Positions 1 through 39,320 of a stretch of 64,000 nt of DNA are shown here, one piece after another (position 1 is the first letter of the stretch; every line of letters begins with the position of its first letter). Below the pieces are notes generated by a model that was given only the letters and a program-made list of their open reading frames with translations, had not been told where the DNA came from and ran no database searches. The stretch lies in IMG/VR virus record IMGVR_UViG_3300037789_000070, positions 138,576-202,575 of that record; one strand, 5' to 3'. A program made the translations under genes and the position numbers. The DNA comes from a virus (lineage: Duplodnaviria > Heunggongvirae > Uroviricota > Caudoviricetes).

Positions 1-182
1 AGAACATAGATAAATCTCTTTTATTGCCTTCTTATGACACTTTTAATAAATTGTGTAGGAACAACATCATAGACAGAAATAGTGTGTTTATTTTTGGAGA
101 TGACATTATATATCCACTGGATAAAGAAGAAGAAGTTTTAATCAAAACTATCAAGATGATGGACAATGTTAGGGTAGTGTAG
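1..182 (+). CDS. 3' end of an upstream CDS that continues beyond the window (stop TAG 180-182); eighth member of the paralog family
   Basis: Frame is open from the window edge to 182. It ends ...SVFIFGDDIIYPLDKEEEVLIKTIKMMDNVRVV, which fits the F-x-D-D ... K-T-(I/L)-K-(L/M)-(L/M) tail of the downstream paralogs. Confidence 0.5.
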   Translation, partial: NIDKSLLLPSYDTFNKLCRNNIIDRNSVFIFGDDIIYPLDKEEEVLIKTIKMMDNVRVV

Positions 183-191
183 TAAAAACCA

Positions 192-1127
192 ATGTTTACT
201 TTAAAAGAGAAGCACGATCTAAACAGAATTTATAGTGGAATTTATTGGCCCAATCGAAAGGATGATTCTCTTGCCAGTGGTGCCATAGATGATCCATCTC
301 CTTTTACTATTGAAGCGTTCTGGCATGGTAATCTACCTATCGTGTTGTATACAAAAAGGGAAGTGAGGGACCGCAAAGGAAATCTATTATCTTTCCGTGT
401 CAAACATTATCCGGATTCCAACACATTTATTTTCTTTTTGACACAACCAGAAACGAAAAAAATAACACCTATAGGTTCTTGTTCAGAAGAAAATTTTTTA
501 GATATATTATTCGGCATTCATCGGGACATGGAAAGAACCATTCCCATGAAAGAGGATATATTAAAGACAGTTAATTCTGATATATGGGATATTATTGATG
601 GGGGCGAAGAATTAATTCCATCTACAACAGATCAGATTTATGAAACTTTGCAGAAGATGACTCTCGCCCATAAAAAATTTCCATTGGAGATTTCTCTAAA
701 AATAACTACACCAGACGTTAGAGTTATAAATGAATGGGTCAATTTGAGGATTAATATAGTTGATAACGATTTGAATAGAACAGAACTTCATACATATAAA
801 CAGGATAGTGAATTTAATTTCATCAGAACTTTTTTAAAATTTGATGTAAAAGATGATTATTCGTATTTAAAAACACAAAGTTCTTACATCAAGGGAATAA
901 TAGATTTTTTGAGTGTCGGTGACCCTTCTATGATTTTTCTTACTCGTTCTCCACAGATCAAAGGTATGCTTAAAGACAAACCTCAAGAAGAAACGTTTCA
1001 TTTTTTGATTGGAGACTACGTTATTTTTTTCGCATTTTACTGTAAAGATAAAATTGAAAAAAGCACTGTTTCTCTTATGGAAACGCCAGAATGTCAGATA
1101 TATAAATTCATCGAGAGAGTAAAATGA
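192..1127 (+). CDS. hypothetical protein, paralog-array member 1 (most divergent tail)
   Basis: 311-aa ORF. Its stop overlaps the next start as ATGA. Tail is ...KDKIEKSTVSLMETP. Confidence 0.6.
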   Translation: MFTLKEKHDLNRIYSGIYWPNRKDDSLASGAIDDPSPFTIEAFWHGNLPIVLYTKREVRDRKGNLLSFRVKHYPDSNTFIFFLTQPETKKITPIGSCSEENFLDILFGIHRDMERTIPMKEDILKTVNSDIWDIIDGGEELIPSTTDQIYETLQKMTLAHKKFPLEISLKITTPDVRVINEWVNLRINIVDNDLNRTELHTYKQDSEFNFIRTFLKFDVKDDYSYLKTQSSYIKGIIDFLSVGDPSMIFLTRSPQIKGMLKDKPQEETFHFLIGDYVIFFAFYCKDKIEKSTVSLMETPECQIYKFIERVK

Positions 1128-2101
1128 CATTAAACCCACAAAGTGTGTCAGTCACTAATGCAATATATAATTCGGTATTAAATCATTTGCAAACACAGGA
1201 CATGTTTGCAAAAAAGGTACTTGGAGACAACAATCGCATTAATGGCCTGATCATAAGTTCTACCAATCACGCTAATTTACGGATTATCATGAGAATGATT
1301 GCGATTGAAAATCCTTTCAGTAATATGTGGGAACCTTCTGATGAACAAATATACAGCGTTCTTATTAATGTTGAGGGCGAAAAAGACTTAACACGTGAAA
1401 CCCGTATTACAATAAATTTAAATGATAAAGAAGGTTTCAGTGCAATACTTTCAACTCTTGAAAGTTATATTAGGAAATCATATAATAATTTGTTTTTACA
1501 AAAAGAACGAATACTTACTATTGATGCTCTGAACAGCAGTTTAGATTTGATTGACATAGTGGATAGAGAATTCAACTATGGTCATACTAGAGACATCAAT
1601 ACGATTATAGGTCATATTGAAAAATCGACAAATAATAACCTTGTATATGAAAATGCGGGGTTAGAATTAAAGTTTTCGCCTTTAAGAGATGATAAAAATT
1701 TCTCTTTATTCCATCACGGGTTCCAAATAGTACAGTCCTTTTATACCGTACCTCGGGGCGAAAAGGACAATTCGACATTATTCTTTGAAAAATTTTCCAT
1801 GGCACTTGAGATTCTTAAAGAGTATTTCGAGCAAATCAAGAACATCAATAAAACTGGCAATGACATTTTTCTTGTTACTAGAAACGATTCTATTGGGAAA
1901 ATTTCTCTTCTTAATGGAGTTGAAGTGTTTTCAAATACTCCACAGAAAGAAAAACTAATCGAAACAAATTATCGATTACTTGCTGTAGTTCCTGAAAAGG
2001 CTGATACAGTAGAAAGGACCTTCAAAATGATGGATATAGGCAAAATACAAAAAATCACTCTGCCAGAACACTTTAAAGGAAACGAAAATGGGATTTCCTG
2101 A
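1124..2101 (+). CDS. hypothetical protein, paralog-array member 2
   Basis: 325 aa. C-terminal ...LLAVVPEKADTVERTFKMMDIG matches the family tail. Overlaps both neighbours. Confidence 0.6.
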   Translation: MTLNPQSVSVTNAIYNSVLNHLQTQDMFAKKVLGDNNRINGLIISSTNHANLRIIMRMIAIENPFSNMWEPSDEQIYSVLINVEGEKDLTRETRITINLNDKEGFSAILSTLESYIRKSYNNLFLQKERILTIDALNSSLDLIDIVDREFNYGHTRDINTIIGHIEKSTNNNLVYENAGLELKFSPLRDDKNFSLFHHGFQIVQSFYTVPRGEKDNSTLFFEKFSMALEILKEYFEQIKNINKTGNDIFLVTRNDSIGKISLLNGVEVFSNTPQKEKLIETNYRLLAVVPEKADTVERTFKMMDIGKIQKITLPEHFKGNENGIS

Positions 2102-3035
2102 ATTCATCAGATGCTCGGGCCAAGGAATCGAACAACTAGCGTCTCAGTGCTTTTCTGATCTATTCCAAACACAAATGAAGGGCACGATTAGAAATGAAAA
2201 TGGTGTGTTTTATTTCACATCTGAGGACAATCTATTAGATATTATCTTAACCACAGATTTGGATTATTACGCATCATCTGCGATATTGTCTAACAATATC
2301 AATTTTCGTTTCAAACAGGAAAATTATATCAATTTTAACTTTAAGTTTGATATTGAGGGGAGAATAGGTCATCTTTTTCTAGATAAAGAAATGATTGACA
2401 TGCAATTTGGAAAGAAGATGGAGTTCTTTCTAGAGTTTGTAAGTGGAATTTATCATATGAGAGACATAATACCGAAGTTTCCTGTTAGAATTTATAATAT
2501 GTTCAAAGATGATGAAATTTTTTCTAAACCGGGTTACTCTATCTCAAGGCAAGAGTACCATGAGCATTGTCATCATTCCAGTGCCAATTACACGTCTTCA
2601 AAAGATATCAAATTATGTCACAGTCTCCAAAATTTGAATATTTTTTTCTTACTAGGTGATATTATCATACCATCTTTAAGCACCGGTCCACTTCAAGACT
2701 GGGTAAATGATTATCTTAAATCAGAAACAACAGAACATATTATGAGTTATATGTTTGGAATGTGTGATGAATATGTTGACGATTGTAAAGACTTTTTACT
2801 TGAATTTTTTGATAAAACATACGAAGTCAAAAATTCAGCTTTGATGTTGACAAATTATATGACTGATGTAGATTTTTTTGAATCTATAGTGTCTCGTGTG
2901 AAGGTTTTAGATTTAAAAGAACCGTTTCTCATATTGACTTTTGAAGATGATCCTTCTATCCAACTCAAAACACTCTCATTGGCGGGCGAAGACGAGTTTG
3001 CTAGAACTTTGTTTGATGGCAAATATTTGTCTTGA
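2088..3035 (+). CDS. hypothetical protein, paralog-array member 3
   Basis: 315 aa. C-terminal ...ILTFEDDPSIQLKTLSLAGEDEF. Confidence 0.6.
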   Translation: MGFPEFIRCSGQGIEQLASQCFSDLFQTQMKGTIRNENGVFYFTSEDNLLDIILTTDLDYYASSAILSNNINFRFKQENYINFNFKFDIEGRIGHLFLDKEMIDMQFGKKMEFFLEFVSGIYHMRDIIPKFPVRIYNMFKDDEIFSKPGYSISRQEYHEHCHHSSANYTSSKDIKLCHSLQNLNIFFLLGDIIIPSLSTGPLQDWVNDYLKSETTEHIMSYMFGMCDEYVDDCKDFLLEFFDKTYEVKNSALMLTNYMTDVDFFESIVSRVKVLDLKEPFLILTFEDDPSIQLKTLSLAGEDEFARTLFDGKYLS

Positions 3036-3093
3036 TTGAACTGGCGGTTTAAGGTATGATCAATGATCGTAACATTGAACCCAGTTTATTTAA

Positions 3094-4086
3094 ATGACAT
3101 ATCCAAACGTACTATCTGGTGATGGTCGCTCTATCAACGAACAAATTTTAAAAGACCTACATGAGCACATGGAAAAAAACTATGTGAAGTGGGATGATTT
3201 GGGGACAGAACCGTCATATAGTAAGCATGGAGAAAAATTAACAGTCAAGTTTCATTTATCTTCTACGTACCTTGGTCCAGAAAAATATAATATTAATCTT
3301 TTTGTAGTACTACTTCTCAATGATGATAGTGTTAATCCAAACTTTGATATCTGTTTTTCTACTAAATTTCAATTTGAAATAGATTCGTCAGATGTTTATT
3401 CTTATTATGTTTTTGCGTATGATCAACGCATGGAGGAGATTATTGACTTTATCGATATGAACTTTTCATCATATCAAGTGTATTTGTCTACAATCAAAAG
3501 ATATTTTGATACTATTAGAGGTCATAAATTATTCGTTGAATGTGGCTATAGGTTTAAAGAGCTACCATACTCCTATATGAGGAATAATGTTTCTTCGCTG
3601 CAAAAGAAACCTAAAACTCATACCCATCTAACTGACTTATCAGTCTATATTTCGTCAGAAGGGGGCATTATGTTTGAGATGGGAGAGGTTTTGCTTCGTT
3701 GCTTATCTATGACAAACCTTGCTAACTTGAGTAGAGATTTTAACTCATCTAAATATTTTACTACTGCAAAAACAAGTTTCTTTGAATATGCTAGTCAGGT
3801 TGTCCAGAACCAAACCGATAAAATCAAATCTGCTCTGGATAACATTCGTGAAGCAAATAAAAAATGTGAATATGTGTTTTTACTCACTAGATTTCAATAT
3901 TTTTATATGGATAATATCAGTAACATAGCATCTTATTTTCATTCAGATATCATACTTAATGATTTATTAGGAACTGATTACTTGTACATCATAGGATTTG
4001 ATGATTTCGATACTCAGAAGAAAACTCTTAAATTGATGGGAGAAGATTCGTTTGTGGAAACTGTAATGAGCCAAACCGGATCATAA
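3094..4086 (+). CDS. hypothetical protein, paralog-array member 4
   Basis: 330 aa. C-terminal ...IIGFDDFDTQKKTLKLMGEDSF. Confidence 0.6.
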   Translation: MTYPNVLSGDGRSINEQILKDLHEHMEKNYVKWDDLGTEPSYSKHGEKLTVKFHLSSTYLGPEKYNINLFVVLLLNDDSVNPNFDICFSTKFQFEIDSSDVYSYYVFAYDQRMEEIIDFIDMNFSSYQVYLSTIKRYFDTIRGHKLFVECGYRFKELPYSYMRNNVSSLQKKPKTHTHLTDLSVYISSEGGIMFEMGEVLLRCLSMTNLANLSRDFNSSKYFTTAKTSFFEYASQVVQNQTDKIKSALDNIREANKKCEYVFLLTRFQYFYMDNISNIASYFHSDIILNDLLGTDYLYIIGFDDFDTQKKTLKLMGEDSFVETVMSQTGS

Positions 4087-4092
4087 TTAATC

Positions 4093-5097
4093 ATGGAACA
4101 GTCACTGAACATAAATGAAAAACTTGAAAAAGTTTTTTTAGAATTGAACGGAAAACTTGATTATTTTCTTAGTCAACTAGAACATCAGACAAGTACAAAG
4201 ATAGAACCTTTAGGAAGAAGACACCACACCGCTGATTCTTTTTGTAAATTTGAAAACACACTGTCTATTTCTTCAAGCGAATATGAAGATAATGATTTTA
4301 TAATTGATCTTGAGGTAGAGGTCTTACGTTCTCATTTTACGAAAAATTCTAAATGGGAACTAAATGTTGGTGTTAGCTTTTATGGACAATACTGGGACGA
4401 TTTGTTGAGTATGGTTGTTGAACGAGAAGAAATTCCTGATTTCAACAAATTATATACGGAGTTGACGGATGAAGCTCTGTCAATTTTTAAAGAGTACTTC
4501 AATGAATTTAAAAAGCGAAACACTTTAGAATCATTTGAACAATTTGAGGTGGACGTATTTAATTCAGCAAACGATGTTATTTCCCGCTTCAATAAATTGA
4601 ACAGAAATTTACAGGTTGAAAAAACTGCTTACAGTATTAACATCAAATCCAAAGAAAAATCCAATAGGTGCTTTGAGATCTCATTTTCATCCATTGATTA
4701 TGAATCATATCCTTCTGGCTTTTCACACCTGTGTAATACAGAATATATTATCGACAGAGTTGAAGTCTACAAAGAGATGTCTTCAAATTACGGCAGGCTT
4801 CCAGAAAATAAAGAATGGCAGATTGAAAAAACAATCAAAGGGGATATTCGTGATATAGTAACGACTATCCTTGAAAACATTGAAGAGCATTTTTCGGGGG
4901 ATGTTAATGAGATTCAGATAATATCCAATGAAGAATATGAGAGATATCCTGCTGTTGGTCAGTTGACAGATAATCTCTTTTCATTCGAATGTAACCAAAA
5001 AACGCTTTTTGTAGTGGGCTTGAGAAGCGAAGTAGAAAAGCAGACTTTATATTTGATCTTGGGAGATGGTTTTGATAAAAAATCAATCGGCCTTTAA
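4093..5097 (+). CDS. hypothetical protein, paralog-array member 5
   Basis: 334 aa. C-terminal ...FVVGLRSEVEKQTLYLILGDGF. Confidence 0.6.
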   Translation: MEQSLNINEKLEKVFLELNGKLDYFLSQLEHQTSTKIEPLGRRHHTADSFCKFENTLSISSSEYEDNDFIIDLEVEVLRSHFTKNSKWELNVGVSFYGQYWDDLLSMVVEREEIPDFNKLYTELTDEALSIFKEYFNEFKKRNTLESFEQFEVDVFNSANDVISRFNKLNRNLQVEKTAYSINIKSKEKSNRCFEISFSSIDYESYPSGFSHLCNTEYIIDRVEVYKEMSSNYGRLPENKEWQIEKTIKGDIRDIVTTILENIEEHFSGDVNEIQIISNEEYERYPAVGQLTDNLFSFECNQKTLFVVGLRSEVEKQTLYLILGDGFDKKSIGL

Positions 5098-6115
5098 TTA
5101 CGATGGCGACAAAGAAAAACTTTGTGAAATATACTTGCCTTCTCTAAGTGGTATGGTGAGAGAAGATATAATTGATGTTCTCAATTGTAATGGCATGAAT
5201 GTGACAGTAAATGAGTTTCATAAAGATGGCGTATTTAATGTCGTATCTAAAAAGGCCTCAGATTTAAATTTTGGTCTTGATATTGACTTTGACATTAATC
5301 GTGATCAGGAATATTACGAACAAAATATGATAGTTCCTATCAATGTTTACATTACTGGCATAAGATACACATCAACAGGTAATGGTATCTCATCTACTCC
5401 GTCTTCGATAGGATCAGAAATAATCAAATTCCATGTTCATGTACATGAAAAAAATGAAGATGGTTATAATTGCACTATCAAAGGAAGTTATAATGAATTA
5501 ATTCAAGAGATATCATCGACAGTCACAACATTAATTAAATATAATGAGACGATTAATTATTTCATTGAAAAAGCAAAATCATTTTCTATAAAACATAATG
5601 AGATGGAGCATAACGGTAAATTCTATTTTATGTTTTCTGAATCATTTCAATTAGGAAGATTTTATTATGGTTCTTTCGAACTGACCAATGTCATTGAGTT
5701 TTCATTTCTTAATTACACATTGTGTTTAGGCGAAGAAAATTCTAATTTTTTTAGATATTATCAAGATAAGATTACTGTCCTTCAACGTGTTTTTACCACA
5801 GTAGAAGAACTTGTGGAGATTATGGAGGAGAAGTTAGCAGAAAACCCGTATACCTATTTGATTTCATCAACGGATACAAAATTACTGTCTTCGTTCTCAA
5901 ATCCATTTTTTCCTAGCGATGACGACCAACCTTCGTTGAGATTAGAAGAGTTAGAAAAAATTAAATCTGTGGTAAGGTATGAAACGGTACATGATCTCCC
6001 TTCAAACGAAACTGTCATAGTTTCATTTGACGATTATGACACACAACTAAAAACCTTGAAATTATTGAACATTCCGGTAAACATAGATCGACTGTTTTTC
6101 CGTCCCATCTCATAA
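5066..6115 (+). CDS. hypothetical protein, paralog-array member 6
   Basis: 349 aa. C-terminal ...VIVSFDDYDTQLKTLKLLNIP. Start overlaps member 5 by 32 nt. Confidence 0.55.
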   Translation: MVLIKNQSAFNYDGDKEKLCEIYLPSLSGMVREDIIDVLNCNGMNVTVNEFHKDGVFNVVSKKASDLNFGLDIDFDINRDQEYYEQNMIVPINVYITGIRYTSTGNGISSTPSSIGSEIIKFHVHVHEKNEDGYNCTIKGSYNELIQEISSTVTTLIKYNETINYFIEKAKSFSIKHNEMEHNGKFYFMFSESFQLGRFYYGSFELTNVIEFSFLNYTLCLGEENSNFFRYYQDKITVLQRVFTTVEELVEIMEEKLAENPYTYLISSTDTKLLSSFSNPFFPSDDDQPSLRLEELEKIKSVVRYETVHDLPSNETVIVSFDDYDTQLKTLKLLNIPVNIDRLFFRPIS

Positions 6116-6127
6116 GCAGAACTTAAG

Positions 6128-7048
6128 ATGAATAAAACTCAACTGATCACATACATTGATAGTGAAGTGACCACTTTCATGGAAGCACAGGGCTTTTCAC
6201 TTGAAAGTAGGTCTATTCCTTATAGAAAAATTTTCAGAAATGAATTCAAAAACGGAGACAAACTTGTAAAAATAGAACTTAAAGAGTACCTTACGCCAAA
6301 CCTGATGAATGATTATTCTGCATATTGGGAAATTTGTATTATTGAAGGGCCTTTTATTAGTGACGATTTAAATTTGAAAGAGTTTGTTAAATTTCCAATA
6401 ATCGTAAATGGAGATGAATACGCTCTTACCTTTAAATTTGATAGGATATTAAAGAAGATTACTGATACCTTGAGGCACATGGAAACTCTTCGAAATTTTA
6501 AAAAAGAGATAAAAAGTTTTCTTCCACCGTCTATCAATTTTACTCATTTAAATTGTAGAGACAATTCATTTTATCCTGAATGTTATAATGAAAATAATAG
6601 GTTTTCTATTGCATATGACCCTGATACTTTTATTTTTGATCTCTGTTTGAATAAAAAAAATATTACCAAAGATTGTTTCAGTCTTGGAGGATATAGTACT
6701 GAGCGTCTTCTCAACACAAAGGGTAGAACGAGAGACAAAAGTAGAACCTTGAATAAACGTGTAAGAGTATATCGCAGAAGGATCAAATCACATCTAAAAG
6801 AATTGGATTTCTTAAACTCATGTTTTGATGAAGTGTGCAAGGAAAAGAAAGATGTGTATCTAGTTCCTCTTCACAAGTTTTGTGAATTTGAAGAATACTT
6901 TAAGAGAACTGGTATTAGTTATGAAGATTTTTCTACTCCAACATTCCAGTTTAAATTAGTTTCTTTTAAAGATTATGAAACTGAAATCAAAACCTTGAAA
7001 TTGATACTGGAAGACACTTCATTAATAAACAACTTTCTTATAAAATAG
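6128..7048 (+). CDS. hypothetical protein, paralog-array member 7
   Basis: 306 aa. C-terminal ...LVSFKDYETEIKTLKLILEDTS. Followed by a terminator. Confidence 0.6.
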   Translation: MNKTQLITYIDSEVTTFMEAQGFSLESRSIPYRKIFRNEFKNGDKLVKIELKEYLTPNLMNDYSAYWEICIIEGPFISDDLNLKEFVKFPIIVNGDEYALTFKFDRILKKITDTLRHMETLRNFKKEIKSFLPPSINFTHLNCRDNSFYPECYNENNRFSIAYDPDTFIFDLCLNKKNITKDCFSLGGYSTERLLNTKGRTRDKSRTLNKRVRVYRRRIKSHLKELDFLNSCFDEVCKEKKDVYLVPLHKFCEFEEYFKRTGISYEDFSTPTFQFKLVSFKDYETEIKTLKLILEDTSLINNFLIK

Positions 7049-7049
7049 A

Positions 7050-7088
7050 AAAAACCCTGACACGTTTTATAATGTCAGGGTTTTTTTG
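7050..7088. terminator. bidirectional intrinsic terminator between convergent genes
   Basis: Stem CCCTGACA (7055-7062) pairs with TGTCAGGG (7073-7080), loop CGTTTTATAA. Flanked by A5 upstream and T7 downstream. Confidence 0.8.
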
Positions 7089-7093
7089 GTTTA

Positions 7094-7369
7094 TTAATCG
7101 TCTTCCAAAATTTCTATTGCAGTCGGCTTTCTGGCCTCTTTAATGGCACCAGACTCGAACAGTTCCAGTCTTTCATGTGCCATGTCCAAACATTCACGAA
7201 TAGTATATATCGCATGTTCGTGATGGGCCATTTGAGCATTATACAACGCAGTCATCAACTTATTGATGTATTCCTCTGTCTGCTGTTTTGTACATTCTTC
7301 TAAAGGAATAGATTTGGTATCAGATTCTTTGTAAATGGCTTTGACTAAGCCAGAAGTCACAGCGACCAT
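7094..7369 (-). CDS. hypothetical protein (91 aa)
   Basis: ORF with protein-like composition. Overlaps the next gene. Confidence 0.5.
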   Translation of the reverse strand: MVAVTSGLVKAIYKESDTKSIPLEECTKQQTEEYINKLMTALYNAQMAHHEHAIYTIRECLDMAHERLELFESGAIKEARKPTAIEILEDD

Positions 7370-7728
7370 TCTTTTACTACCTCAATTTTCTTGCTCCTGA
7401 CAACACGCCAAGAGCCGGGAAAACCGAGTTTTGGTTCGACATTTTCGGCATCAAAGTCCTTGCCACTTTTTAATGCCTTGTACCAAGCCTTTTCAACCGT
7501 CTGATATGCCTTACCGGCTTCGCAGGCTCGATGAACGGCCCAACCAAATCTTGGTCCCGTATCATATTTATGACCATCCTTATGGTCAAGTTTTCCTTCT
7601 GAAAACAATTCCTTGCTGATATCGAAATACTTGGTATTGTCCTTTTTGAAGTTCATACCAAGATCCAATAGATAAGAGAAGGAATTCTCTTTACCGTTAT
7701 TCTTTACCTTTAAAACTTTTGGTGTCAT
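7357..7728 (-). CDS. hypothetical protein (123 aa)
   Basis: ORF. No motif recognised. Confidence 0.5.
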   Translation of the reverse strand: MTPKVLKVKNNGKENSFSYLLDLGMNFKKDNTKYFDISKELFSEGKLDHKDGHKYDTGPRFGWAVHRACEAGKAYQTVEKAWYKALKSGKDFDAENVEPKLGFPGSWRVVRSKKIEVVKEWSL

Positions 7729-7734
7729 CTTTTT

Positions 7735-8514
7735 CTAAATTTTTACAACTGTGTTAACAGATAATGTTTCTCTATCGAGAGAAACAATGAAGCGATATGA
7801 CACTCCTTCATCCAAAGACACATATGACGTGTTAGTATATTTGTCTATGAACACATAAAGAGGTGTGTCAGAACCAGCCAAAGCATACAATCTCGAAGCA
7901 ACCCACGTTGTGTCTAAACTCTTAGATGAACGCACATGAGATGTTGCAATGGCTGCAGGGTCGATTAGTACAGACTGACCAGCAATTTCGGTTTGGACAG
8001 CCTGTCTTTCAGACTGATCCAAATCGCCACCTTCTCTTTCAGCTTGAGGACTGTTAGGAAAGGTATATGAAATGGATTTTATTCCGGTCACATTTTCCAA
8101 CGCTGCTTCGATTCTACTTTCGACATCTTCTTCAATAGCAGAAATCTTTTCAGCATCAGTGGTGCCAGATTCGAAACTCTCACCCATAGATAGTTCCAGA
8201 ACCACAGTGGGCCTCACAGTGATAGTAGACATTTTAGTAATATCTTCTTCCACAATTGCAGTAACTGCTTCTGCCGGGGTTTCCTCATTAGGGGGAGAAC
8301 CTTCCCCACCTGCCGATTCACCCTCATCCAGTTCCCAGCCGCCTTCTGCCGTGAGCCAAGCTTCAACCCGAACACGAGCACTCTCAAAGCTATGACCCGG
8401 AAGGTCAGCCATGAGCAATTGTGTCGTGTTTATTGTCCAGTCTTCTAATGTTGCCATGTTTTCTTTATAGAACCCTCTTATCTTTTCCAGAAACAAAAAA
8501 TTTGTTAATGGCAC
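7735..8514 (-). CDS. hypothetical strongly acidic protein (259 aa)
   Basis: Long D/E-rich central region, e.g. EGGWELDEGESAGGEGSPPNEETPAEAVTAIVEEDI. Confidence 0.55.
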   Translation of the reverse strand: MPLTNFLFLEKIRGFYKENMATLEDWTINTTQLLMADLPGHSFESARVRVEAWLTAEGGWELDEGESAGGEGSPPNEETPAEAVTAIVEEDITKMSTITVRPTVVLELSMGESFESGTTDAEKISAIEEDVESRIEAALENVTGIKSISYTFPNSPQAEREGGDLDQSERQAVQTEIAGQSVLIDPAAIATSHVRSSKSLDTTWVASRLYALAGSDTPLYVFIDKYTNTSYVSLDEGVSYRFIVSLDRETLSVNTVVKI

Positions 8515-8597
8515 TTTACAAGTGAAAAAAAGTAGTATAGTATTTTCTCACTCTTAAGGATTTATCCTTATAACACATTAAACAAAGGAACTATCTT

Positions 8598-8897
8598 ATG
8601 ACTATTCATCTTTTCTCCGCCGAAGTTTGGAAGCAGGCTGACGGCGGTTGGGAATCTGAAGAGTATAATATTATGGTAGACGAACTTGTCATGCTTCCTT
8701 CTGAGAAGGTTCGTTCTTGGAAAGATGGGGACACACCCCCTTATCAGTTCGATAAGGCGTCCAAGCATTTGGATCATCATATCACGCTGGATATTAGTGA
8801 AGGCCGAATTAAGAACGAATTTGAGTTGATGGATGTGGAAAATAATCATCCAGAGGTATATGATCTTCTCATTGAGTATGTTGAAAATACATTCTAG
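8598..8897 (+). CDS. hypothetical protein (99 aa)
   Basis: AAGGA-like RBS upstream. Preferred over the overlapping antisense ORF 8568-8903. Confidence 0.55.
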   Translation: MTIHLFSAEVWKQADGGWESEEYNIMVDELVMLPSEKVRSWKDGDTPPYQFDKASKHLDHHITLDISEGRIKNEFELMDVENNHPEVYDLLIEYVENTF

Positions 8898-8938
8898 AAA
8901 CATTTAAATCTACTGAGTTAAATGTTTTGGAGGAAGAA

Positions 8939-9244
8939 ATGTCAGATTCAACTTCTCATAAAAAAGAAATGACCAAAGTGTTTATTGTCCCAATTCGGTA
9001 TTGGGAAGAGGACGAGCCTAAAACGGGCTTTTTGTTGAAAAAGTGGAAAGACGGTTTCTCATACGTACATCATCACGATTATAACCATTCGGTCTATATT
9101 GAGAGTGAGAGGGTGTGCTCTACACGAGAAGAAGCCATAAAACAAATACAAGTTCTTAGGAATATCAGGGATATGTATGATAACCAAAAAGCACGTAAGA
9201 TCGTGCGGTCTATACTTGAGGACATTAATCAGGAGCAAAAATAA
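8939..9244 (+). CDS. hypothetical protein
   Basis: The track ORF starts at TTG 8927. The ATG at 8939 is preceded by GGAGG at the right spacing. Confidence 0.5.
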   Translation: MSDSTSHKKEMTKVFIVPIRYWEEDEPKTGFLLKKWKDGFSYVHHHDYNHSVYIESERVCSTREEAIKQIQVLRNIRDMYDNQKARKIVRSILEDINQEQK

Positions 9245-9780
9245 TGGACCCAGTAGCCGCCTACGCAAATCTTGATGGTTATAAACTAATCAAAAACTTC
9301 TATAAAGATCGAACTGCTGAACGAAGTGGGGTTCCTTTAATTAACCATATTGATGAAGGGGTTAGAATCTTACACCATCTTGGTGCTAGGATTAATGCAA
9401 TCGAAGCTTTTATGATTCATCCTCTCCTTCAGAATGATGTGGATTTGGCTGTAAACTTCAATTGCAGAAACATTTGTTCTTTAAACGGTCAAGTGATTCT
9501 TTTTGCAATGGAATATCGCAAAGTGGCTAATTCTTATCTTCCACCAGATGTTTCATCTGGCGGAAATCTACCTAAGAACATTCCTCTATACGACACCAAG
9601 CGAATGTTGATTGCTGATAAGGTTCAGAACCGGAAGGATTTTCTTAAGTACCAGACGCCCGAGACTTGTCCAAATTATGATGACCTCATGATTTACTTTA
9701 GGAATTGGATCAACTTTCTGAAAATCGAAGATCAATACGAAGAATTGGTCAAGGTCGCTGAAAACATTAAATCTTTGTAA
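9244..9780 (+). CDS. hypothetical protein (178 aa)
   Basis: ORF. ATG overlaps the previous stop (TAATG). Confidence 0.5.
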   Translation: MDPVAAYANLDGYKLIKNFYKDRTAERSGVPLINHIDEGVRILHHLGARINAIEAFMIHPLLQNDVDLAVNFNCRNICSLNGQVILFAMEYRKVANSYLPPDVSSGGNLPKNIPLYDTKRMLIADKVQNRKDFLKYQTPETCPNYDDLMIYFRNWINFLKIEDQYEELVKVAENIKSL

Positions 9781-9815
9781 TAAACGAATATTCTGAGAAA
9801 AAATATATAAAGAAA

Positions 9816-9863
9816 CCTGTTCTCCGATATATAATGTAAATAAGAGTAATATCGGAGAACAGG
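9816..9863 (+). promoter_or_regulatory. perfect 15-bp inverted repeat whose 3' arm contains the SD of the downstream gene
   Basis: CCTGTTCTCCGATAT (9816-9830) pairs with ATATCGGAGAACAGG (9849-9863), 18-nt loop. The AGGAG lies inside the 3' arm, 8 nt before the ATG at 9872. No T-run follows. Confidence 0.45.
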
Positions 9864-9871
9864 AGAATACT

Positions 9872-10297
9872 ATGGCTGAAATCAAAATTAGCCTCTTACC
9901 GGATATTCTAAAGAAAAGCACTGATGGAAGTGTCAATATGACATACCAACAAATACACAGTGCTTGTCTAAGTGGTGATATTCCAGTCACTCGATCTGCA
10001 ACCAATAGGTTGTATGTCCAAGAAGATAAAATCCCAGAAATTATAGAAACTTTTTCTTTACAGAATGAACAGGCTCGTATTGAACGAGAAGTTGCTGAAA
10101 AGGCCAAACGCCTAGGAGTACCTGTCATTCCTAAAAAGGAGAGTAAACCAATTGCCCCTACAGAAACCAACCCAGTGGTTTCTATATGCGGTCAATGTGG
10201 TATGGAAATGAGAGCAGTTATGCATTACTCGTGCAGTAGAAGTGATTGTCCTTGTTTCACAAATTTAACTTTTACAAACGAGGTAAAAAATGATTGA
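9872..10297 (+). CDS. small protein with N-terminal HTH-like segment and C-terminal Cys4 zinc ribbon
   Basis: C-terminal CGQCGMEMRAVMHYSCSRSDCPC. N-terminal TYQQIHSACLSGDIPVTRSATNRLYV resembles MerR/Xis-type HTH. Overlaps the vWA gene by 8 nt. Confidence 0.6.
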   Translation: MAEIKISLLPDILKKSTDGSVNMTYQQIHSACLSGDIPVTRSATNRLYVQEDKIPEIIETFSLQNEQARIEREVAEKAKRLGVPVIPKKESKPIAPTETNPVVSICGQCGMEMRAVMHYSCSRSDCPCFTNLTFTNEVKND

Positions 10298-10943
10298 CAA
10301 TATTAATTTGTCTAAAAACAACAAGACAGTAGTAACACTTCTAGTAGATGCCAGTGGAAGCATGGGTTCATGCTACAATGAAACCATTTCGGGTATTAAT
10401 GAGTATATCGATACTTTGAAAGCTTCTGATGGTAACATTACCTTTTCGTTGATTTCTTTCAATGGTATCACAGGGGCTACAGTTATTAATAAGAATGAAA
10501 AGATTAATAATGTTGAACCGCTCACTGAGTCGGTCTACCAGACAACTGGTGCCACTCCACTTTACGAATCCATCGAAAAGGCAATTGATGCTACTAAGGA
10601 AGTAGTTGGCAACGACGATGTAAATGTGGTGTTTGTTATCCAGACGGATGGTGTTGAGAATTGTTCTGCTCCGGGCTATAATAAACAGACTTCTTCCAAA
10701 AAGATTAAAGACCTTACCAGTAAGGGATGGCAGTTCATTTTTATGGGAACTGATATCGATGCGTATGGAGAGGCCGGTGGACTTGGCATTTCAACCACTA
10801 ACACGGTGAAATACAGACGAGACAATACTAGAGAATTGTATAGATCAATTGGAATGAATACAGTGGCATATGCTTCATCAGCAAATGCTACCACTATGAA
10901 TTTCTCTGACCAACAAAAATCTCAATTAGAAGATAGCGAGTAA
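10290..10943 (+). CDS. von Willebrand factor type A (vWA) domain protein with complete MIDAS
   Basis: LLVDASGSM (DxSxS), a T in TTGATPL and a D in VIQTDGVEN give a complete MIDAS, with alternating hydrophobic beta-strand pattern. Confidence 0.8.
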   Translation: MIDNINLSKNNKTVVTLLVDASGSMGSCYNETISGINEYIDTLKASDGNITFSLISFNGITGATVINKNEKINNVEPLTESVYQTTGATPLYESIEKAIDATKEVVGNDDVNVVFVIQTDGVENCSAPGYNKQTSSKKIKDLTSKGWQFIFMGTDIDAYGEAGGLGISTTNTVKYRRDNTRELYRSIGMNTVAYASSANATTMNFSDQQKSQLEDSE

Positions 10944-10949
10944 ATGAAA

Positions 10950-10975
10950 AAGGGGACTTCGGTTCCCTTTTTTAA
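10950..10975. terminator. intrinsic terminator (UUCG tetraloop hairpin plus T-run)
   Basis: GGGGAC-TTCG-GTTCCC followed by T6. Lies between convergent genes. Confidence 0.7.
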
Positions 10976-11289
10976 TGTTTGGTCATTCCAATAGTCTTGA
11001 TTATTTTAAGACGGATACTAGACCCAACAACGCCGTTTAACATGACGTCCACACCAGCAAAAACATCATCCGGTAGATTTGGTATCACTTTGAATTCACA
11101 TTCTGGATGTATTTGAGAGATAATTTTTTCTATAGATTCGAAGATATTGATAGATTGTGATATAGAAGACATCACTTTTGATTCTTGTTTTGGTACTAGA
11201 TTATATGGGTTACTGTCATTTGGGACTACAGTTACATAGAAAAAGGTTCCCTCAAAAGTGTCTTGAGTTGTTTTCTTTTCTTCACTCAT
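10972..11289 (-). CDS. hypothetical protein (105 aa)
   Basis: ORF. Confidence 0.5.
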   Translation of the reverse strand: MSEEKKTTQDTFEGTFFYVTVVPNDSNPYNLVPKQESKVMSSISQSINIFESIEKIISQIHPECEFKVIPNLPDDVFAGVDVMLNGVVGSSIRLKIIKTIGMTKH

Positions 11290-11291
11290 GT

Positions 11292-11690
11292 TTACCCAAT
11301 TAGCTTAGTTAATAATTTTTCGTAATCAATTTTGCCTTCTCTAAAACTTCTTTCTTTTCGTTTTTCTTCGGGAGAAGGTTTTTTTTCAGTGTCCATCTGA
11401 ACACGTTGTCTTTTAATTTCGGGTCTTAGCCAACCATCTTCTGTGTTATAAGACCTTCTGATGATAGCATTTTTTCTTTTTCTAGAATTTATTTGTACGA
11501 ATTCTATAAAGCCGTCTCGAAGTAATTCCACTTTATAAACGGGATCGCCCTCAGAAACAGGTTCACAAGAAATTATATAAGGGTCGCCGCTGGCATCCCG
11601 ATCCATTTGGCGGGCAGCATCTTCCTCGTCTATGGCATTTCTCACGCCGGTCGGTAATTTTGAGTATAGCTCTGCAAAACGGTTCTTCAT
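11292..11690 (-). CDS. hypothetical protein (132 aa), basic C-terminus
   Basis: ORF. Confidence 0.5.
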   Translation of the reverse strand: MKNRFAELYSKLPTGVRNAIDEEDAARQMDRDASGDPYIISCEPVSEGDPVYKVELLRDGFIEFVQINSRKRKNAIIRRSYNTEDGWLRPEIKRQRVQMDTEKKPSPEEKRKERSFREGKIDYEKLLTKLIG

Positions 11691-11730
11691 TATTTTCCTC
11701 GTATTATAGTATTTACATTCGCGGTTCTAT

Positions 11731-12111
11731 ATGATAAAACGTAGTCCTCAAATCAAATTACCCAAAGGGATTATTAACATGGACGACTTTAAAGGACCAA
11801 CCAAGGCCGTAATTTGGGGTCTAGGGGTTTTTCTACTCGTGATTGTTGTGATGACCATTTTCAGTGGCTACCTTCGTGAATATACAGTTGACGTAGAACG
11901 CCAGATTTATGAAAAGAGTTATCAGAAGGTTCAAGGTGATGCTGAACGTATCAACATGCTGGAAGCTGAACTCGCTGGCGTAAACGCAGGTCTCAATGAT
12001 CCTGAAACTACGGACGAAGAACGAGCAATTCTTCGTCGTCAAAAGGCTATGTTGGAAGTTCAGCTTAACAGTGCTCGGGAAAATCATTCCGACACATTGT
12101 CCAAACGCTAA
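11731..12111 (+). CDS. type-II membrane protein with coiled coil (i-spanin-like?)
   Basis: One TM helix (VIWGLGVFLLVIVVMTIF) followed by a heptad-like coil (LEAELAGV...). Start may be the ATG at 11779. Confidence 0.5.
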   Translation: MIKRSPQIKLPKGIINMDDFKGPTKAVIWGLGVFLLVIVVMTIFSGYLREYTVDVERQIYEKSYQKVQGDAERINMLEAELAGVNAGLNDPETTDEERAILRRQKAMLEVQLNSARENHSDTLSKR

Positions 12112-12122
12112 AGAGACAATAA

Positions 12123-12452
12123 ATGCAAAACCTTAAATTTTGTCTGTACATTTTCTTGTGCGTTGTGGTTGGAAAACTGTTAACTTTGACATTTTTTCCA
12201 GACGGTTTGGGAGATTTGTTTTCGTCAGACACAACGGCTCAGCCGTGTGAAGTTTCACAAGCATATTACAAAAACAAATACTATCAGACTATGCAAAGGG
12301 AAATTTGGAATACCGAGTTAATTCTCGAAAACGAAACCCTTTCCGATCCTGCTAAAGCGATTTTAGAAGGACGTATAGAATTTCTAGAGGAATCTCTGGA
12401 AAGTGAAGAATGGGAAAATGGTTTCCCATTTGAATTTCAAAAAAGGAAGTAA
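12123..12452 (+). CDS. hypothetical secreted/membrane protein
   Basis: N-terminal hydrophobic segment. Confidence 0.45.
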   Translation: MQNLKFCLYIFLCVVVGKLLTLTFFPDGLGDLFSSDTTAQPCEVSQAYYKNKYYQTMQREIWNTELILENETLSDPAKAILEGRIEFLEESLESEEWENGFPFEFQKRK

Positions 12453-12453
12453 A

Positions 12454-13029
12454 ATGAAGATCTTTATGCCAATCCTGATTGCCCTTCTTTTGATGCCAGT
12501 TGCAGCTTGCAAGGGCGAAGCTTCTCAAGACCAAGAAGACACGGAAAATGTGAACCGCCAGCAGGCTCAGTATGCCAAGGCTCAGCCTATTCCGTTTTTC
12601 AATTTCTCACTTGAACGACATCTGTTGATCGAAGTCTATAAGATTCGGAACGAGAATGTTGCAACCCATACCGTTTGGCGATCAGACACTGGTGTCATCG
12701 AAGGCGACTGTCCGAGTATGGGCTATGGTATTCCTTATGATACCAGCTTGACCAATCCTCTCGTAGGTACTGATCGGGATCAGGATGGATGGGCCGGTAG
12801 CCAGCGTCTGACATCAGTGGGCCAGCCTGAACCCAACGGTGTTTTTGCAAGCACAAACACCTCTGCTACGTGGGTTTTCTGTATTGCTCCGGGCGGTGAT
12901 TTGGCCCCGGTGTATGTCGAATCGAAGGTCACCGGTTACCCCGGAACCGTCGAAGTTGACTACAACACCAATCGTGTGGTCATGAAGGGCAACCCGAACG
13001 TCACTCTCAAGCCTAGTCCTTCGATGTAA
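12454..13029 (+). CDS. lipoprotein
   Basis: MKIFMPILIALLLMPVAAC has a lipobox (VAAC). AAGGAAG RBS precedes the ATG at 12454. The track start at 12403 is probably too early. Confidence 0.65.
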   Translation: MKIFMPILIALLLMPVAACKGEASQDQEDTENVNRQQAQYAKAQPIPFFNFSLERHLLIEVYKIRNENVATHTVWRSDTGVIEGDCPSMGYGIPYDTSLTNPLVGTDRDQDGWAGSQRLTSVGQPEPNGVFASTNTSATWVFCIAPGGDLAPVYVESKVTGYPGTVEVDYNTNRVVMKGNPNVTLKPSPSM

Positions 13030-13046
13030 AAAAGAACGTCATAAAA

Positions 13047-13086
13047 GGGGCCTATCATTCTATAATGTTGATAGGCCCCTTTTTTC
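13047..13086 (+). terminator. intrinsic terminator
   Basis: GGGGCCTATCA ... TGATAGGCCCC hairpin followed by T6. Confidence 0.8.
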
Positions 13087-13103
13087 TTTTGGAGATTGAC
13101 AAA

Positions 13104-13637
13104 ATGTTTGACACAAAAAATTACATATATGAAGAAATCAAAAACAAAGATGATGACTATTACATGTTTCCTTTACTGGATAACAAAACGGTCTCCTTCC
13201 TATTGAAGGACCAACGCATTCATGGCGTTCTTAGTCCCGGAATGGATTCCTTTCTCTATTTTTGTGATGAGATGAACGGAGTTCAATGGCGCATTGAAGC
13301 ATATGACCAAATGATTCCTGTTGGACCATTGTTTGTGCTCAATGAAAAGGGACTTGAAATTGTCAAGAATGATAGTGGATATAAATTTTATCACGATGAA
13401 GATATCTATACAAAAGCACATGAAAAAATTGATCGTATTGACGACCTCATTCTAACCTATGGTCATCTAACAGATACAGAAAAACAAGTATGGGTTCTTG
13501 ATCAAGTCATTCGCATTATTCATGGCGAAAATTATGACAAATGGGTTGAGGAATATGAACTTCCTGTAATGGAAGATGATGAAGGGCGTGTTCTCAAGTA
13601 TGATTGGGACACTGGTGTTGAACCTGAAATGGATTAG
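13104..13637 (+). CDS. hypothetical protein
   Basis: The track start at 13065 lies inside the terminator hairpin. The ATG at 13104 has GGAG upstream. Confidence 0.55.
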   Translation: MFDTKNYIYEEIKNKDDDYYMFPLLDNKTVSFLLKDQRIHGVLSPGMDSFLYFCDEMNGVQWRIEAYDQMIPVGPLFVLNEKGLEIVKNDSGYKFYHDEDIYTKAHEKIDRIDDLILTYGHLTDTEKQVWVLDQVIRIIHGENYDKWVEEYELPVMEDDEGRVLKYDWDTGVEPEMD

Positions 13638-13852: not shown

Positions 13853-13860
13853 TATAAATA
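13853..13860 (+). promoter_or_regulatory. T4-late-type promoter box TATAAATA
   Basis: Exact TATAAATA 27 nt upstream of the ATG of the giant structural gene. Confidence 0.5.
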
Positions 13861-13886: not shown

Positions 13887-16800
13887 ATGCATCGTATTGA
13901 CAGCGAAGGTAATGTAAGCAATCAATTTTCAGCCGGTAACGAAAGTGTAAAAGGCACTGTAGTTTCCGCAGAATGGCTCAATGATGTTCAAGAAAATATC
14001 ATGGCTATTCTTTCTGCTGCAGGAATCACTGCCACCAAAGGTAGATCAGCAGACCTTCTAGATTCTATCAATAAACTCATTTCACAGGGCGCTGGTAACG
14101 ATTTAGCTGATATCGATGCCCTACGTGCTTTGACCGGAACCGCTGCCACAGCGGCTGTTATTCGAGTTCTAGACAGTGATGGTTCCGGCAATGCTGATTA
14201 CTGGTTCCGTGATCCAGTTGACGAAAGTACCCCGGATGACGGAAGTACTGTTATCGTTGACGTTGATGGCAATCGTTGGCGCAAGCAAATCACTGGTGCA
14301 TGGATTCCTTATGCTACTGGTGAAACTCTTGAAAGTTTAAAGCCCGCAGAGGGTGGTGCTGATGTTACCGGAAATAACACTTCTGCAAATACTTTATTAG
14401 TTGGCTCTACTCCTGCTGCCACCGTTGAAAGTGGTTCTTTGGTCGGCAACGAAATTTCCACCCATTTAAGTGCAAACAATTTCGTAACTAGTATTGCTGA
14501 TCTTGTTGCCCAGACAGAGGAATCTGTTGAAAATGTTGTTTTCAATGGACTGAATGTGAATAATTGGAATTCCTCTTGGTCTCCTACTGACAGATCAGTG
14601 GCATTCAATCTTAGAGTAAACAAAGCAACCAGAACTCTGACGGTTCGGTTTTCAGGACATTCCGGTCACACAGGAGCTTCTGCAATCAAGTTAGAAATTG
14701 AAGTTTCTGGCAACACTGTAGCTTCATATTCAAACTTAACAGCGAATAATATTCTATCGAATAAAGGTTCGAACGTTGATTTTGCGGCAGACAACAATGT
14801 CTATGGACCAAATGGTTTCGTGTGGAGTGAAGGTCTAACAAATACCGCCGATGATCAATTCAATATCGTATTAACAGATACTGTCACCAATCTAACCTCG
14901 TTCAGAATCAGATTGGTAACATTCAGCACTGATGACGGATCTGCCAAGAAATACATTTCTTTTGGTGATACCCCGATAATATCTAATCCGAGTATTCCAA
15001 TTCAACTTGTTGTAAGTCCTGATGATACGTCAGAACATGATGTATTGTTAATGCAAAATGCTCCCGCAGATGCAGGAGCTACTAATAGAAAAATCTTCAC
15101 AAGAACGAGTGCCCCTTCTAATCCCGGCGATGATCTTCATGAAGGGGATTTGTGGTTTGATACTGATGATGGAAACAGACAATATCATTGGAATGGCTCT
15201 TCTTGGGTCGAAGTAAGAGACTCTGGTGCTCAGGCTGGTTCTGACTTAATTTCGAATAACGGCATCACAATTGACCCAAGTTCTCTCGGTGGAGTATATG
15301 GCGGAGACCTAGTTTATTCTGACGATACTAGTTTAGAGGATTTGAAACCAGCAGAAGGTGGTGCTCAGGTCTTTACCGGAAAAAGTATTACAGAACTTAC
15401 TGACACCACTGCTGACAACATTTCCACTGGATCAGGTTCCGTACAGGACATCATTGATGGTCTGAAACTTCCATCTAATGGTGGTTTTGAAAGAGGGACG
15501 GCAGGTAGTCAGGAAATACCAGAGGCGTGGTTTAGAAGTGGTTTCTATAGTACGTCAAGGACTGAATATTATTCGGACTCCCCATCAGATACTTCCTTTG
15601 GTTCTCAGCTTTCTTATGGTGCGGAAAACGCTACTCAAAATGGTGGCTCTGTTGGATGGTGGAGAATTGGTAAAAAGTTCCAAGCTGGAAACACTGGCGA
15701 TACTCTTTCAATTTCTGCCAGAGTTAAACCCAAAACTTTCAATGTTCCAGCCTCCATTTCCAATACTCCCGGCAGTACTTCGTATTTCACAGTAAGTGAT
15801 GCTTACATAAGAATTGCTTTTTTTGAAGCCGATGGAACATTAATTTCAACTCATAACTCCAACTCACTTTCACAGCAGGTGTACGACAACGGAAATATTT
15901 CCTTACCGTACAACGTGACTGATACTTGGATACCGGATGCATTGACCTATTCAATGACGGTCCCTGCCAACACGTTCCGAGTTGACGTTTGGTTAGTTGC
16001 TGTAGGAAGTTCCGATGCCCTTTCCTCCTTAGGTCTTGAAACGGGGGACGGTGTTGTTAAATTTGACGATTTCACTTGGTCTTATACTGGTGAAATGCGT
16101 GAAGTTTCGGAAGCTACTTGGGCATCTGAACCCGGTGCAACTCATGGCGCTGAGTGGGGAACTAATATATCCGGTCAGCCAAATGATTCCGATCTTTTAA
16201 ATTCTCAACAACTCTGGTCGGATATTAGCGGAACTGGTAAGCCAGCCGATAACGCGACCAATACGAAAATCTTTGATCAAACGAGTGCCCCTTCTAATCC
16301 CGGTGATGACCTTCATGAAGGGGATATCTGGTTCGACACCGATGATAACAATCACCTTTATCGTTGGAATGGTTCTTCTTGGGTATCGTTAAGGGATGGA
16401 GGTATTGCACAGGCTATTAACGATGCAGCTACCGCCCTTTCTTCTACGGCTGCTGGCTCTCTTACTGCGTATAAATCGCCAACAGAACCAATTGGTCGAT
16501 CAGATGGCGATTTATGGTTTGATACTTCTGACGGAAACAAATTATATAGGTACAATTTTTCAACTCCTCAAATCTTGTCTGGCAACGATAGATATTTCTC
16601 TTCCGGTATAGGCAATTGGTCTGACACATCAGCGGGCGCTGGTGGTAGTGCTTCGGTAGATGGAGTAGATGAAGAGTTAGATATTGTTTCGGATGGTGTT
16701 GATTATGGTCAGGCTACTATTTCCATAACTACTGAAGCAGAAACTGAATACGAGTTGAAGTTTGATGTTTCCGGTGGTGGTAATGATTGTTCGGTGAGAG

Positions 16801-29443: not shown

Positions 29444-29704
29444 TTATATTCTTTTAACGACCAAAGAACATTTTTGTTCAAGTGCCTCAAGGCCTAGGTC
29501 AGTAAGCCACCAAGCATTAATCATTCGATTATCAACTTCCATTGTTACGGATTTGATAAATCCACGCTCTTCAAGTGGGCCGGTAATAGATGGATCAAAA
29601 TGATTATACTGGCCAGCTACCTTAACGTCTTTGCCAATGACACGTCCATACTGTGACATAAATTCTAGAGTCCATGCCTGTTTGTATCCGATGTTAAGCG
29701 ACAT
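29444..29704 (-). CDS. hypothetical protein (86 aa)
   Basis: ORF. Confidence 0.45.
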   Translation of the reverse strand: MSLNIGYKQAWTLEFMSQYGRVIGKDVKVAGQYNHFDPSITGPLEERGFIKSVTMEVDNRMINAWWLTDLGLEALEQKCSLVVKRI

Positions 29705-39296: not shown

Positions 39297-39320
39297 ACAT
39301 GAATGAAAGTAAGGAAACCC

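Follow-up and report, generated by a model that had tools for sequence, protein, structure and literature searches.

What kind of protein would a phage encode eight times in succession, in versions of almost equal length that have little in common beyond a short stretch close to their C-termini? This question is raised by the left end of a 64,000-nucleotide stretch of the viral record IMGVR_UViG_3300037789_000070 (positions 138,576 to 202,575), the whole of which is referred to here as the window. As an earlier reading of the sequence alone had stated, positions 3-7048 of the window are occupied by eight consecutive open reading frames (ORFs) on the plus strand, one partial and seven complete (306-349 amino acids (aa)), here termed p0 to p7 (Table 1). 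That sequence-only reading regarded them as one co-translated operon of diverged paralogs with a common C-terminal tail, and interpreted the tail as a docking, packaging or secretion peptide grafted onto variable effector bodies. We examined the array by means of alignment statistics, profile searches, structure prediction and comparative genomics. The observation proves to be largely right and the interpretation is partly supported: the tail is a conserved protein motif, statistically solid in four members, that looks like part of a small C-terminal domain, and the array is best explained, tentatively, as a lineage-specific expansion of binding proteins.

A conserved motif near the C-terminus

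The element common to the array proteins comprises a hydrophobic strand, an acidic turn and the signature [KR]-x-T-[LIF]-[KSY]-[LM]-[LMI]. It ends 11-27 residues before the C-terminus, these residues coming after its invariant Thr; hence, while every tail string quoted in the sequence-only reading is present verbatim, the motif does not lie at the extreme C-terminus, where that reading had placed it. Smith-Waterman alignments of the last ~40 residues, scored as z against shuffles, gave a mean of 3.1 across all pairs, with values of 14.5 for p4-p6, 10.2 for p6-p7, 8.6 for p3-p4 and 8.5 for p4-p7. Leave-one-out hidden Markov models (HMMs) of the tail, searched against 200 ORFs of the window, recovered p4 (E 1.2e-6), p6 (E 2.2e-6) and p7 (E 3.3e-7), as well as p3 at E 0.004; p0 was marginal (E 0.067), yet ranked above every non-member. 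The motif is thus statistically solid in p3, p4, p6 and p7, and for these the claim that nearly all members share the tail stands, whereas p0 is a borderline case and p1, p2 and p5 do not stand out by score. In these other four members the motif is degenerate and supported mainly by position. The best leave-one-out match fell in the tail region (the last 37-47 residues) in 7/7 complete proteins, and in p1 and p2 it also lay in the expected register; by our estimate, the coincidence of tail-positioned best matches in all three weak members has a probability of roughly 0.003. We accepted p1, p2 and p5 as members because of their position, size and context.

Two subtypes of the tail seem to be present, K-T-L-K-L-[LMI] in p3, p4, p6 and p7, and [KR]-T-[IF]-K-M-M-D in p0 and p2. 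Elsewhere in the window a 218-aa ORF carries HYYMFQATLKMMDND about 25 residues before its C-terminus, like the p0/p2 subtype (KT[IF]KMMD), and is the top non-member in the tail HMM searches (E 0.004-0.18 among the 200 ORFs); a distant, shorter relative is conceivable, as is a chance match.

At the DNA level the tail-coding segments of p4, p6 and p7 are 63-83% identical, and many of their differences lie at third codon positions. Because synonymous sites differ while the amino acids are kept, the tail is conserved, and under selection, at the level of the protein. The same synonymous divergence rules out both a regulatory DNA repeat and recent gene conversion. A regulatory role of this repeat as DNA or RNA was accordingly rejected on its codon pattern, together with an Rfam search in which no family matched the array repeat.

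Predicted structure of the C-terminal region

The C-terminal 140 residues of p4 were modelled with AlphaFold using the eight-sequence alignment, and the best of five models reached a predicted local distance difference test score (pLDDT) of 70.3 and a predicted template modelling score of 0.55. The modelled chain starts with a long helix and the strand YVFLL; two short helices then precede a second strand, after which come a third strand, LYIIGF, the helix over FDTQKKTLKL and a final helix. In the numbering of this model the strand at 107-112 is followed by a helix at 115-124 (pLDDT 86-88) and then by another helix. The sequence-only reading had asked whether the tail forms a beta-strand that docks on a common partner; in this model the motif is predicted to be a strand-turn-helix within a domain. 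The tail thus seems to be no free peptide but the part of a small alpha/beta C-terminal domain that is conserved best, a predicted context that partly counts against the anti-defence and docking-peptide interpretation.

Divergence, composition and likely history of the proteins

Identity among the members is 11-24%, and the only invariant columns are the start Met and one tail Thr. Since nothing else is invariant, the members have no catalytic signature in common, which makes enzymes with a shared active site unlikely. The N-termini show no conservation, and a leave-one-out HMM of the bodies recovered no member. Weak colinear similarity beyond the tail links three pairs: for p3-p4 it extends over 217 aa (blastp within the 8-sequence set, E 1.5e-4), for p6-p7 it lies in the N-terminal half (z 4.3), and for p2-p4 in the C-terminal domain just upstream of the tail (z 3.3). 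Because the members are near-uniform in length, joined by these weak colinear links and laid out in tandem, whole-gene duplication is the simplest history; it is plausible, and sequence statistics alone fall short of proving it.

The proteins are soluble, no membrane segments being predicted in them and the highest 19-residue Kyte-Doolittle mean being 1.41, and 6/7 complete members are acidic (isoelectric point (pI) 4.7-5.7). The array has a GC content of 32%, as against ~40% elsewhere, and has a GC content at third codon positions (GC3) of 0.26-0.31, at the bottom of the 0.27-0.44 spanned by the other genes measured. Most of the low GC content stems from amino-acid composition, the proteins being rich in F, Y, K, I and E and poor in G, A and W. 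With GC3 at the low end of the range of the genome and such an amino-acid bias, the low GC content is poor evidence of foreign origin.

Organization of the array

The sequence-only reading held that the starts of the array genes overlap the preceding stops. This is so at three of the seven junctions (4, 14 and 32 nucleotides (nt)), whereas the other four have gaps (9, 58, 6 and 12 nt); because only three overlap, the one co-translated operon of that reading is an inference. The block is nevertheless tight and co-directional, as had been described, and it ends in a terminator that directly follows the last array stop, with A and T runs flanking a 15-pair hairpin. This hairpin, a strong bidirectional terminator, closes both the array and the convergent gene block on its right. 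The promoter of the array lies off the window.

The region was recovered independently in other assemblies. A 45-kb Logan contig (SRR12659295; L001), identical to the window, reaches 248 nt further left and makes 142 aa of p0 visible. It begins within p0 in an in-frame (CAAAAA)n repeat coding for (KN)n; exactly at the contig start (L001 positions 1-30, 248-219 nt left of window position 1) this repeat reads (CAAAAA)5. This may be a simple repeat of variable length at which assemblies break. The edge of the window thus sits 248 nt inside the start of an independent contig, which bears on the placement of the array at a genome end in the sequence-only reading; that placement is an assumption, as is its description of the phage as virulent. 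From a second sample comes a 1.5-kb Joint Genome Institute (JGI) contig that likewise matches the window without a difference and includes an identical copy of p5.

Searches for relatives

Scans of all seven proteins against Pfam, PHROGs, PADLOC and NCBIfam returned sub-threshold noise only. A seven-member profile searched against 1.84 billion representative proteins retrieved just the seven window proteins, some with alternative starts, and p4 matched only itself among 5.8 billion clusters. There was likewise no match to 50,697 phage records by tblastn of p4 or megablast of the region, and none in fold searches. The single PDB sequence match, to the DarT-type ADP-ribosyltransferase DarT1 (E 0.0095, 18.5 bits), was rejected: its alignment is gappy, with a long insertion in the DarT1 chain, and no invariant paralog column lies in that region. 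The earlier statement that no characterized family matches therefore withstood Pfam, PHROGs, NCBIfam, PADLOC, PDB and the profile search.

Searches with the tail motif itself, also suggested in the sequence-only reading, confirmed no relative in IMG/VR, JGI metagenomes or bacterial and archaeal genomes. A strict DNA pattern had 0 matches in IMG/VR; a loose pattern had 4 there and 30 in JGI metagenomes, all chance-like and none in a tandem context of ~300-aa genes; and in bacterial and archaeal genomes a scan for the peptide pattern yielded candidate stretches, of which none could be confirmed as a relative. A word-index protein search with the p0 fragment and with an alignment of the C-termini returned nothing and was uninformative, the alignment query having missed the family's own members in the collection. 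In databases this large, relatives with nothing in common but the ~25-residue tail would have stayed below significance, so that the absence holds only for similarity over most of the length or for the canonical motif. Judged by these sequence comparisons, the array appears to be an orphan, a new sequence family.

One look-alike deserves mention. In an unrelated 37-kb viral contig (IMGVR_UViG_3300001605_004935; L036, positions 710-741, minus strand), an ORF of ~100 aa ends in NDDETEIKTLKLTDLGKDNL, which matches the p7 tail core ETEIKTLKL exactly. By our estimate, chance alone would yield about one match of this kind in IMG/VR, and the likeness is probably a coincidence.

Genomic setting

The array proteins come from a 327,992-bp JGI contig, that is, a phage of ~328 kb, and the window also codes for both subunits of a T4-type topoisomerase II, a tRNA nucleotidyltransferase and a protein with a VWA domain. 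The nearest counterparts of the topoisomerase II are found in Agrobacterium phage Atu_ph07 and Sinorhizobium phage Phosso (43% identity), followed by RaK2-like phages (~39%); no synteny with phage Phosso and no near-identical phage records were found. The source is therefore an uncultivated jumbo phage, whose T4-type replication genes relate it, only distantly, to known jumbo phages. A phage origin, already supposed in the sequence-only reading, is thus upheld by the ~328 kb contig, by its topoisomerase II of the T4 type and by two very long ORFs, one of them tail-fibre-like (2751 aa), the other (3706 aa) with weak tail-protein matches only. Despite the tRNA nucleotidyltransferase, no tRNA genes were found in the window.

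Among the neighbours of the array, the 178-aa protein has 34-47% identical relatives on 33 IMG/VR phage contigs, many of them 200-465 kb long. The array is absent from all 33 and the gene order is not shared either; the 178-aa gene is widespread among large phages and lacks a conserved neighbourhood. A neighbouring 123-aa protein and the VWA-domain protein have no relatives in IMG/VR. The T4 late-promoter consensus TATAAATA is depleted in the 64-kb window, with one copy against ~4 expected by chance. This sole copy (13853-13860, plus strand) is well placed, 27 nt ahead of where the 3706-aa ORF starts, and no T4-type late promoter box occurs within the array.

Table 1. The array, its terminator and other features of the window
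Feature	Position	Strand	Description
p0	3-182	+	partial member; C-terminal 59 codons and stop; tail ends ...IIYPLDKEEEVLIKTIKMMDNVRVV
p1	192-1127	+	311 aa; tail FYCKDKIEKSTVSLME, most degenerate of all
p2	1124-2101	+	325 aa; start overlaps p1 stop (ATGA); tail subtype VVPEKADTVERTFKMMD
p3	2088-3035	+	315 aa; overlaps p2 by 14 nt; tail LILTFEDDPSIQLKTLSL
p4	3094-4086	+	330 aa; canonical tail LYIIGFDDFDTQKKTLKLM; C-terminal 140 aa modelled
p5	4093-5097	+	334 aa; degenerate tail LFVVGLRSEVEKQTLYLIL
p6	5066-6115	+	349 aa; overlaps p5 by 32 nt; canonical tail VIVSFDDYDTQLKTLKLL
p7	6128-7048	+	306 aa; canonical tail KLVSFKDYETEIKTLKLIL; sole basic member, pI 8.6
Repeat family D1	3989-4034	+	tail-coding DNA of p4; other copies at 6018-6063 (p6) and 6957-7002 (p7)
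Bidirectional hairpin terminator	7049-7086		AAAAAACCCTGACA...TGTCAGGGTTTTTT; inverted repeat I1; 15-pair stem, then T run
178-aa protein	9244-9780	+	phrog_21276, E 1e-45, function unknown
VWA-domain protein	10290-10943	+	
3706-aa ORF	13887-25007	+	weak, faint tail-protein Pfam matches only, otherwise families of unknown function
218-aa ORF	29694-30350	-	p0/p2-like string near the C-terminus
Topoisomerase II genes	32577-35929	+	
tRNA nucleotidyltransferase	39303-40550	+	
2751-aa ORF	40981-49236	-	several tail-fibre family matches; Logan contig ends inside

Comparison with known multigene families and targeting peptides

Tandem families of virion paralogs in giant phages include paralog family B of Salmonella phage SPN3US, 20 head proteins with gp138-154 among them, and the phiKZ/SPN3US pfam12699 inner-head family (PMC5694885). 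The genes for gp144-154 (L072, positions 644-13155) form a tight co-directional array coding for proteins of 275-498 aa. Family B and the array under study are alike in consisting of tight co-directional tandem genes (~275-500 aa) of unknown function in a phage of more than 200 kb, with lineage-specific copy number and a short shared motif at or near the C-terminal end. The two nevertheless differ. Family B members are 25-47% identical over long stretches, whereas those of the array are 11-24% identical and undetectable to one another by phmmer; the virion location of family B has been shown, whereas that of the array proteins is hypothetical; and SPN3US is related to phiKZ, whereas it is in Atu_ph07, Phosso and RaK2-like phages that the T4-type topoisomerase II of the array phage has its nearest counterparts. 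Comparison of gp144-154 with the array gave E-values above 0.8 in hmmsearch with the family and tail profiles, and an hhalign probability of 0.03%.

In the course of this comparison we observed that several of gp144-154 end alike at the C-terminus, in a short motif of the ...ELV(E/LP) type, namely FELVE, FELVLP, IELIED, LELVLP and IELVLS. The portion of the SPN3US report at hand makes no mention of it (PMC5694885). It represents an independent case of a conserved C-terminal ending in a tandem family of a giant phage. Another lineage-specific expansion in a jumbo phage is that of Bacillus phage G, in which a zinc-ribbon family has reached ~35 copies (PMC7824862). As in the array, one family has been multiplied in a single jumbo-phage lineage and its function is guessed; the phage G family has a recognizable domain, whereas the array family lacks one.

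Two targeting systems also offer parallels to a short peptide shared by dissimilar proteins. The T4 internal proteins IPI, IPII, IPIII and Alt are encoded by genes of hypervariable regions and have dissimilar bodies with a short shared peptide that directs them to a common destination. This capsid-targeting signal comprises ~10-20 N-terminal residues and is cut off by the prohead protease after an [LI]xE site. The likeness to the array lies in otherwise dissimilar bodies that share only a short conserved peptide; in T4, however, the signal is N-terminal and the proteins are mostly smaller, whereas the conserved element of the array is C-terminal. [LI]xE occurs in the first 25 residues of 4/7 array members against 2 expected from shuffles, which is at chance level. 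The cargo-loading peptides of encapsulins are short conserved C-terminal peptides on otherwise unrelated proteins, which they dock inside an HK97-fold shell. They follow a flexible linker at the very end of the chain, with a consensus of the G-S-L type. The array motif differs in reading D-T-Q-x-K-T-L-K-L, in being followed by 11-27 residues and in its predicted location inside a folded domain. No encapsulin-like gene was found among the scanned ORFs of the window.

Possible functions of the array

We favour, with a probability of roughly 0.45, the explanation that the array is a lineage-specific expansion of at least eight binding proteins that are not enzymes, their C-terminal module being constant and their bodies variable. 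The genes would have arisen by whole-gene tandem duplication and subsequently diverged almost to saturation. The conserved element would form the core of the small alpha/beta C-terminal domain, which would keep one contact unchanged throughout the family, be it to a phage or host partner that all members share or, by self-association, to fellow members, while the N-terminal two-thirds would have diversified such that each recognizes a different target. The family might thus be a battery of adaptors or binders combining a constant handle with a variable business end. As the divergence of the array far exceeds that of known virion paralog arrays, we lean slightly toward an intracellular host-interaction role over a location in the virion. 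An arms race within the infected cell, in line with the host-takeover, anti-defence or superinfection-exclusion arsenal put forward in the sequence-only reading, would suit both the extreme divergence and the AT-rich, accessory-like character of the array.

Several results weigh against a set of binders descended from one ancestral gene. By score, the leave-one-out tail HMM did not separate p1 (E 5.2), p2 (E 0.75) and p5 (E 1.4) from chance. For the bodies the mean z-score was 0.78 in the N-terminal parts and 0.19 in the C-terminal domain minus the tail, as compared to 0.37 in a mismatched-region control. Neither direct nor iterative phmmer searches found any member from any other and hhalign between subgroups of bodies gave no match, the bodies being too diverged to align, just as the sequence-only reading had maintained. 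Further, some of the better-scoring body alignments other than the colinear pairs are off-diagonal, though these are probably noise, and when p4 was modelled at full length in AlphaFold from the seven-paralog alignment, the result could not be used (pLDDT 37.8).

The weakness of the signal in the bodies fits a history of modular shuffling, in which unrelated or only partly related bodies each gained the same C-terminal module by recombination: the similarity lies almost wholly in the last ~40 residues, and the bodies give no significant profile-profile signal. We nonetheless regard such shuffling as improbable. The tail DNA has diverged at synonymous sites (63-83% identity), which rules out a recent transfer; the members are nearly equal both in length and in the distance from tail to stop; and the model embeds the motif in a folded domain, with another helix after it and no linker. 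Together with the weak colinear similarity beyond the tail in p3-p4, p6-p7 and p2-p4, this predicted setting also weakens the idea of a peptide grafted onto variable effector bodies. A secretion signal is not evident, there being no strongly hydrophobic segment by the Kyte-Doolittle measure given above. Still less can be said for the view that the tail likeness is a by-product of chance or composition, or that its conserved DNA is a regulatory element of the next gene. The region is indeed AT-rich and compositionally biased, and the tails of p1, p2 and p5 are insignificant on score alone; however, chance similarity, a possibility that the sequence-only reading had itself raised, does not account for shuffle z-scores of up to 14.5 or for leave-one-out E-values of 1e-6 to 3e-7 in three members. 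As for regulatory DNA, the retention of amino acids while codons differ is the opposite of a DNA-level signal, the motif lies 33-81 nt before the stop at a varying distance from the next start codon, and Rfam has no match. This view is largely refuted and we give it hardly any credence.

More serious, though still rather unlikely, is the alternative that the array encodes a virion-associated paralog family, packaged in the head or attached to the particle, with the C-terminal module as an element of incorporation or anchoring. With ~320 aa, the proteins exceed the usual size of classical early host-takeover products. The window holds the tail-fibre-like 2751-aa ORF and the 3706-aa ORF with its weak tail-protein matches, and the GC3 of the array resembles that of these two genes. 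In giant phages the best-characterized tandem arrays of ~300-aa paralogs are head proteins, as in SPN3US family B (PMC5694885), whose gp144-154 combine a tight co-directional layout with a short C-terminal motif shared by several members. The TATAAATA box cuts both ways: the only copy stands 7 kb downstream of the array, but the array itself is without one. Further points against a virion location are the lack of similarity to SPN3US family B or any PHROG structural family, a divergence far above that of family B, and N-terminal protease-type [LI]xE sites at no more than chance frequency. Very unlikely, in our view, is a variant in which the conserved strand-turn-helix acts as a loading signal that targets the at least eight diversified proteins into the capsid or onto the particle, the phage then injecting an anti-defence arsenal with its DNA. 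Such a signal would be a C-terminal counterpart of the N-terminal capsid-targeting sequence of the T4 internal proteins and of the cargo peptides of encapsulins.

Conclusions

The family is new in sequence but is a feature of an ordinary kind for giant phages: it adds one orphan multigene family to the many that they harbour and opens no long-standing question. Its conserved motif offers a handle for finding the common partner. If the adaptor model is true, the phage would spend ~2% of its 328-kb genome on a single private, fast-evolving family, in which the combination of a constant handle with fast evolution would be the pattern expected at the host-phage interface.

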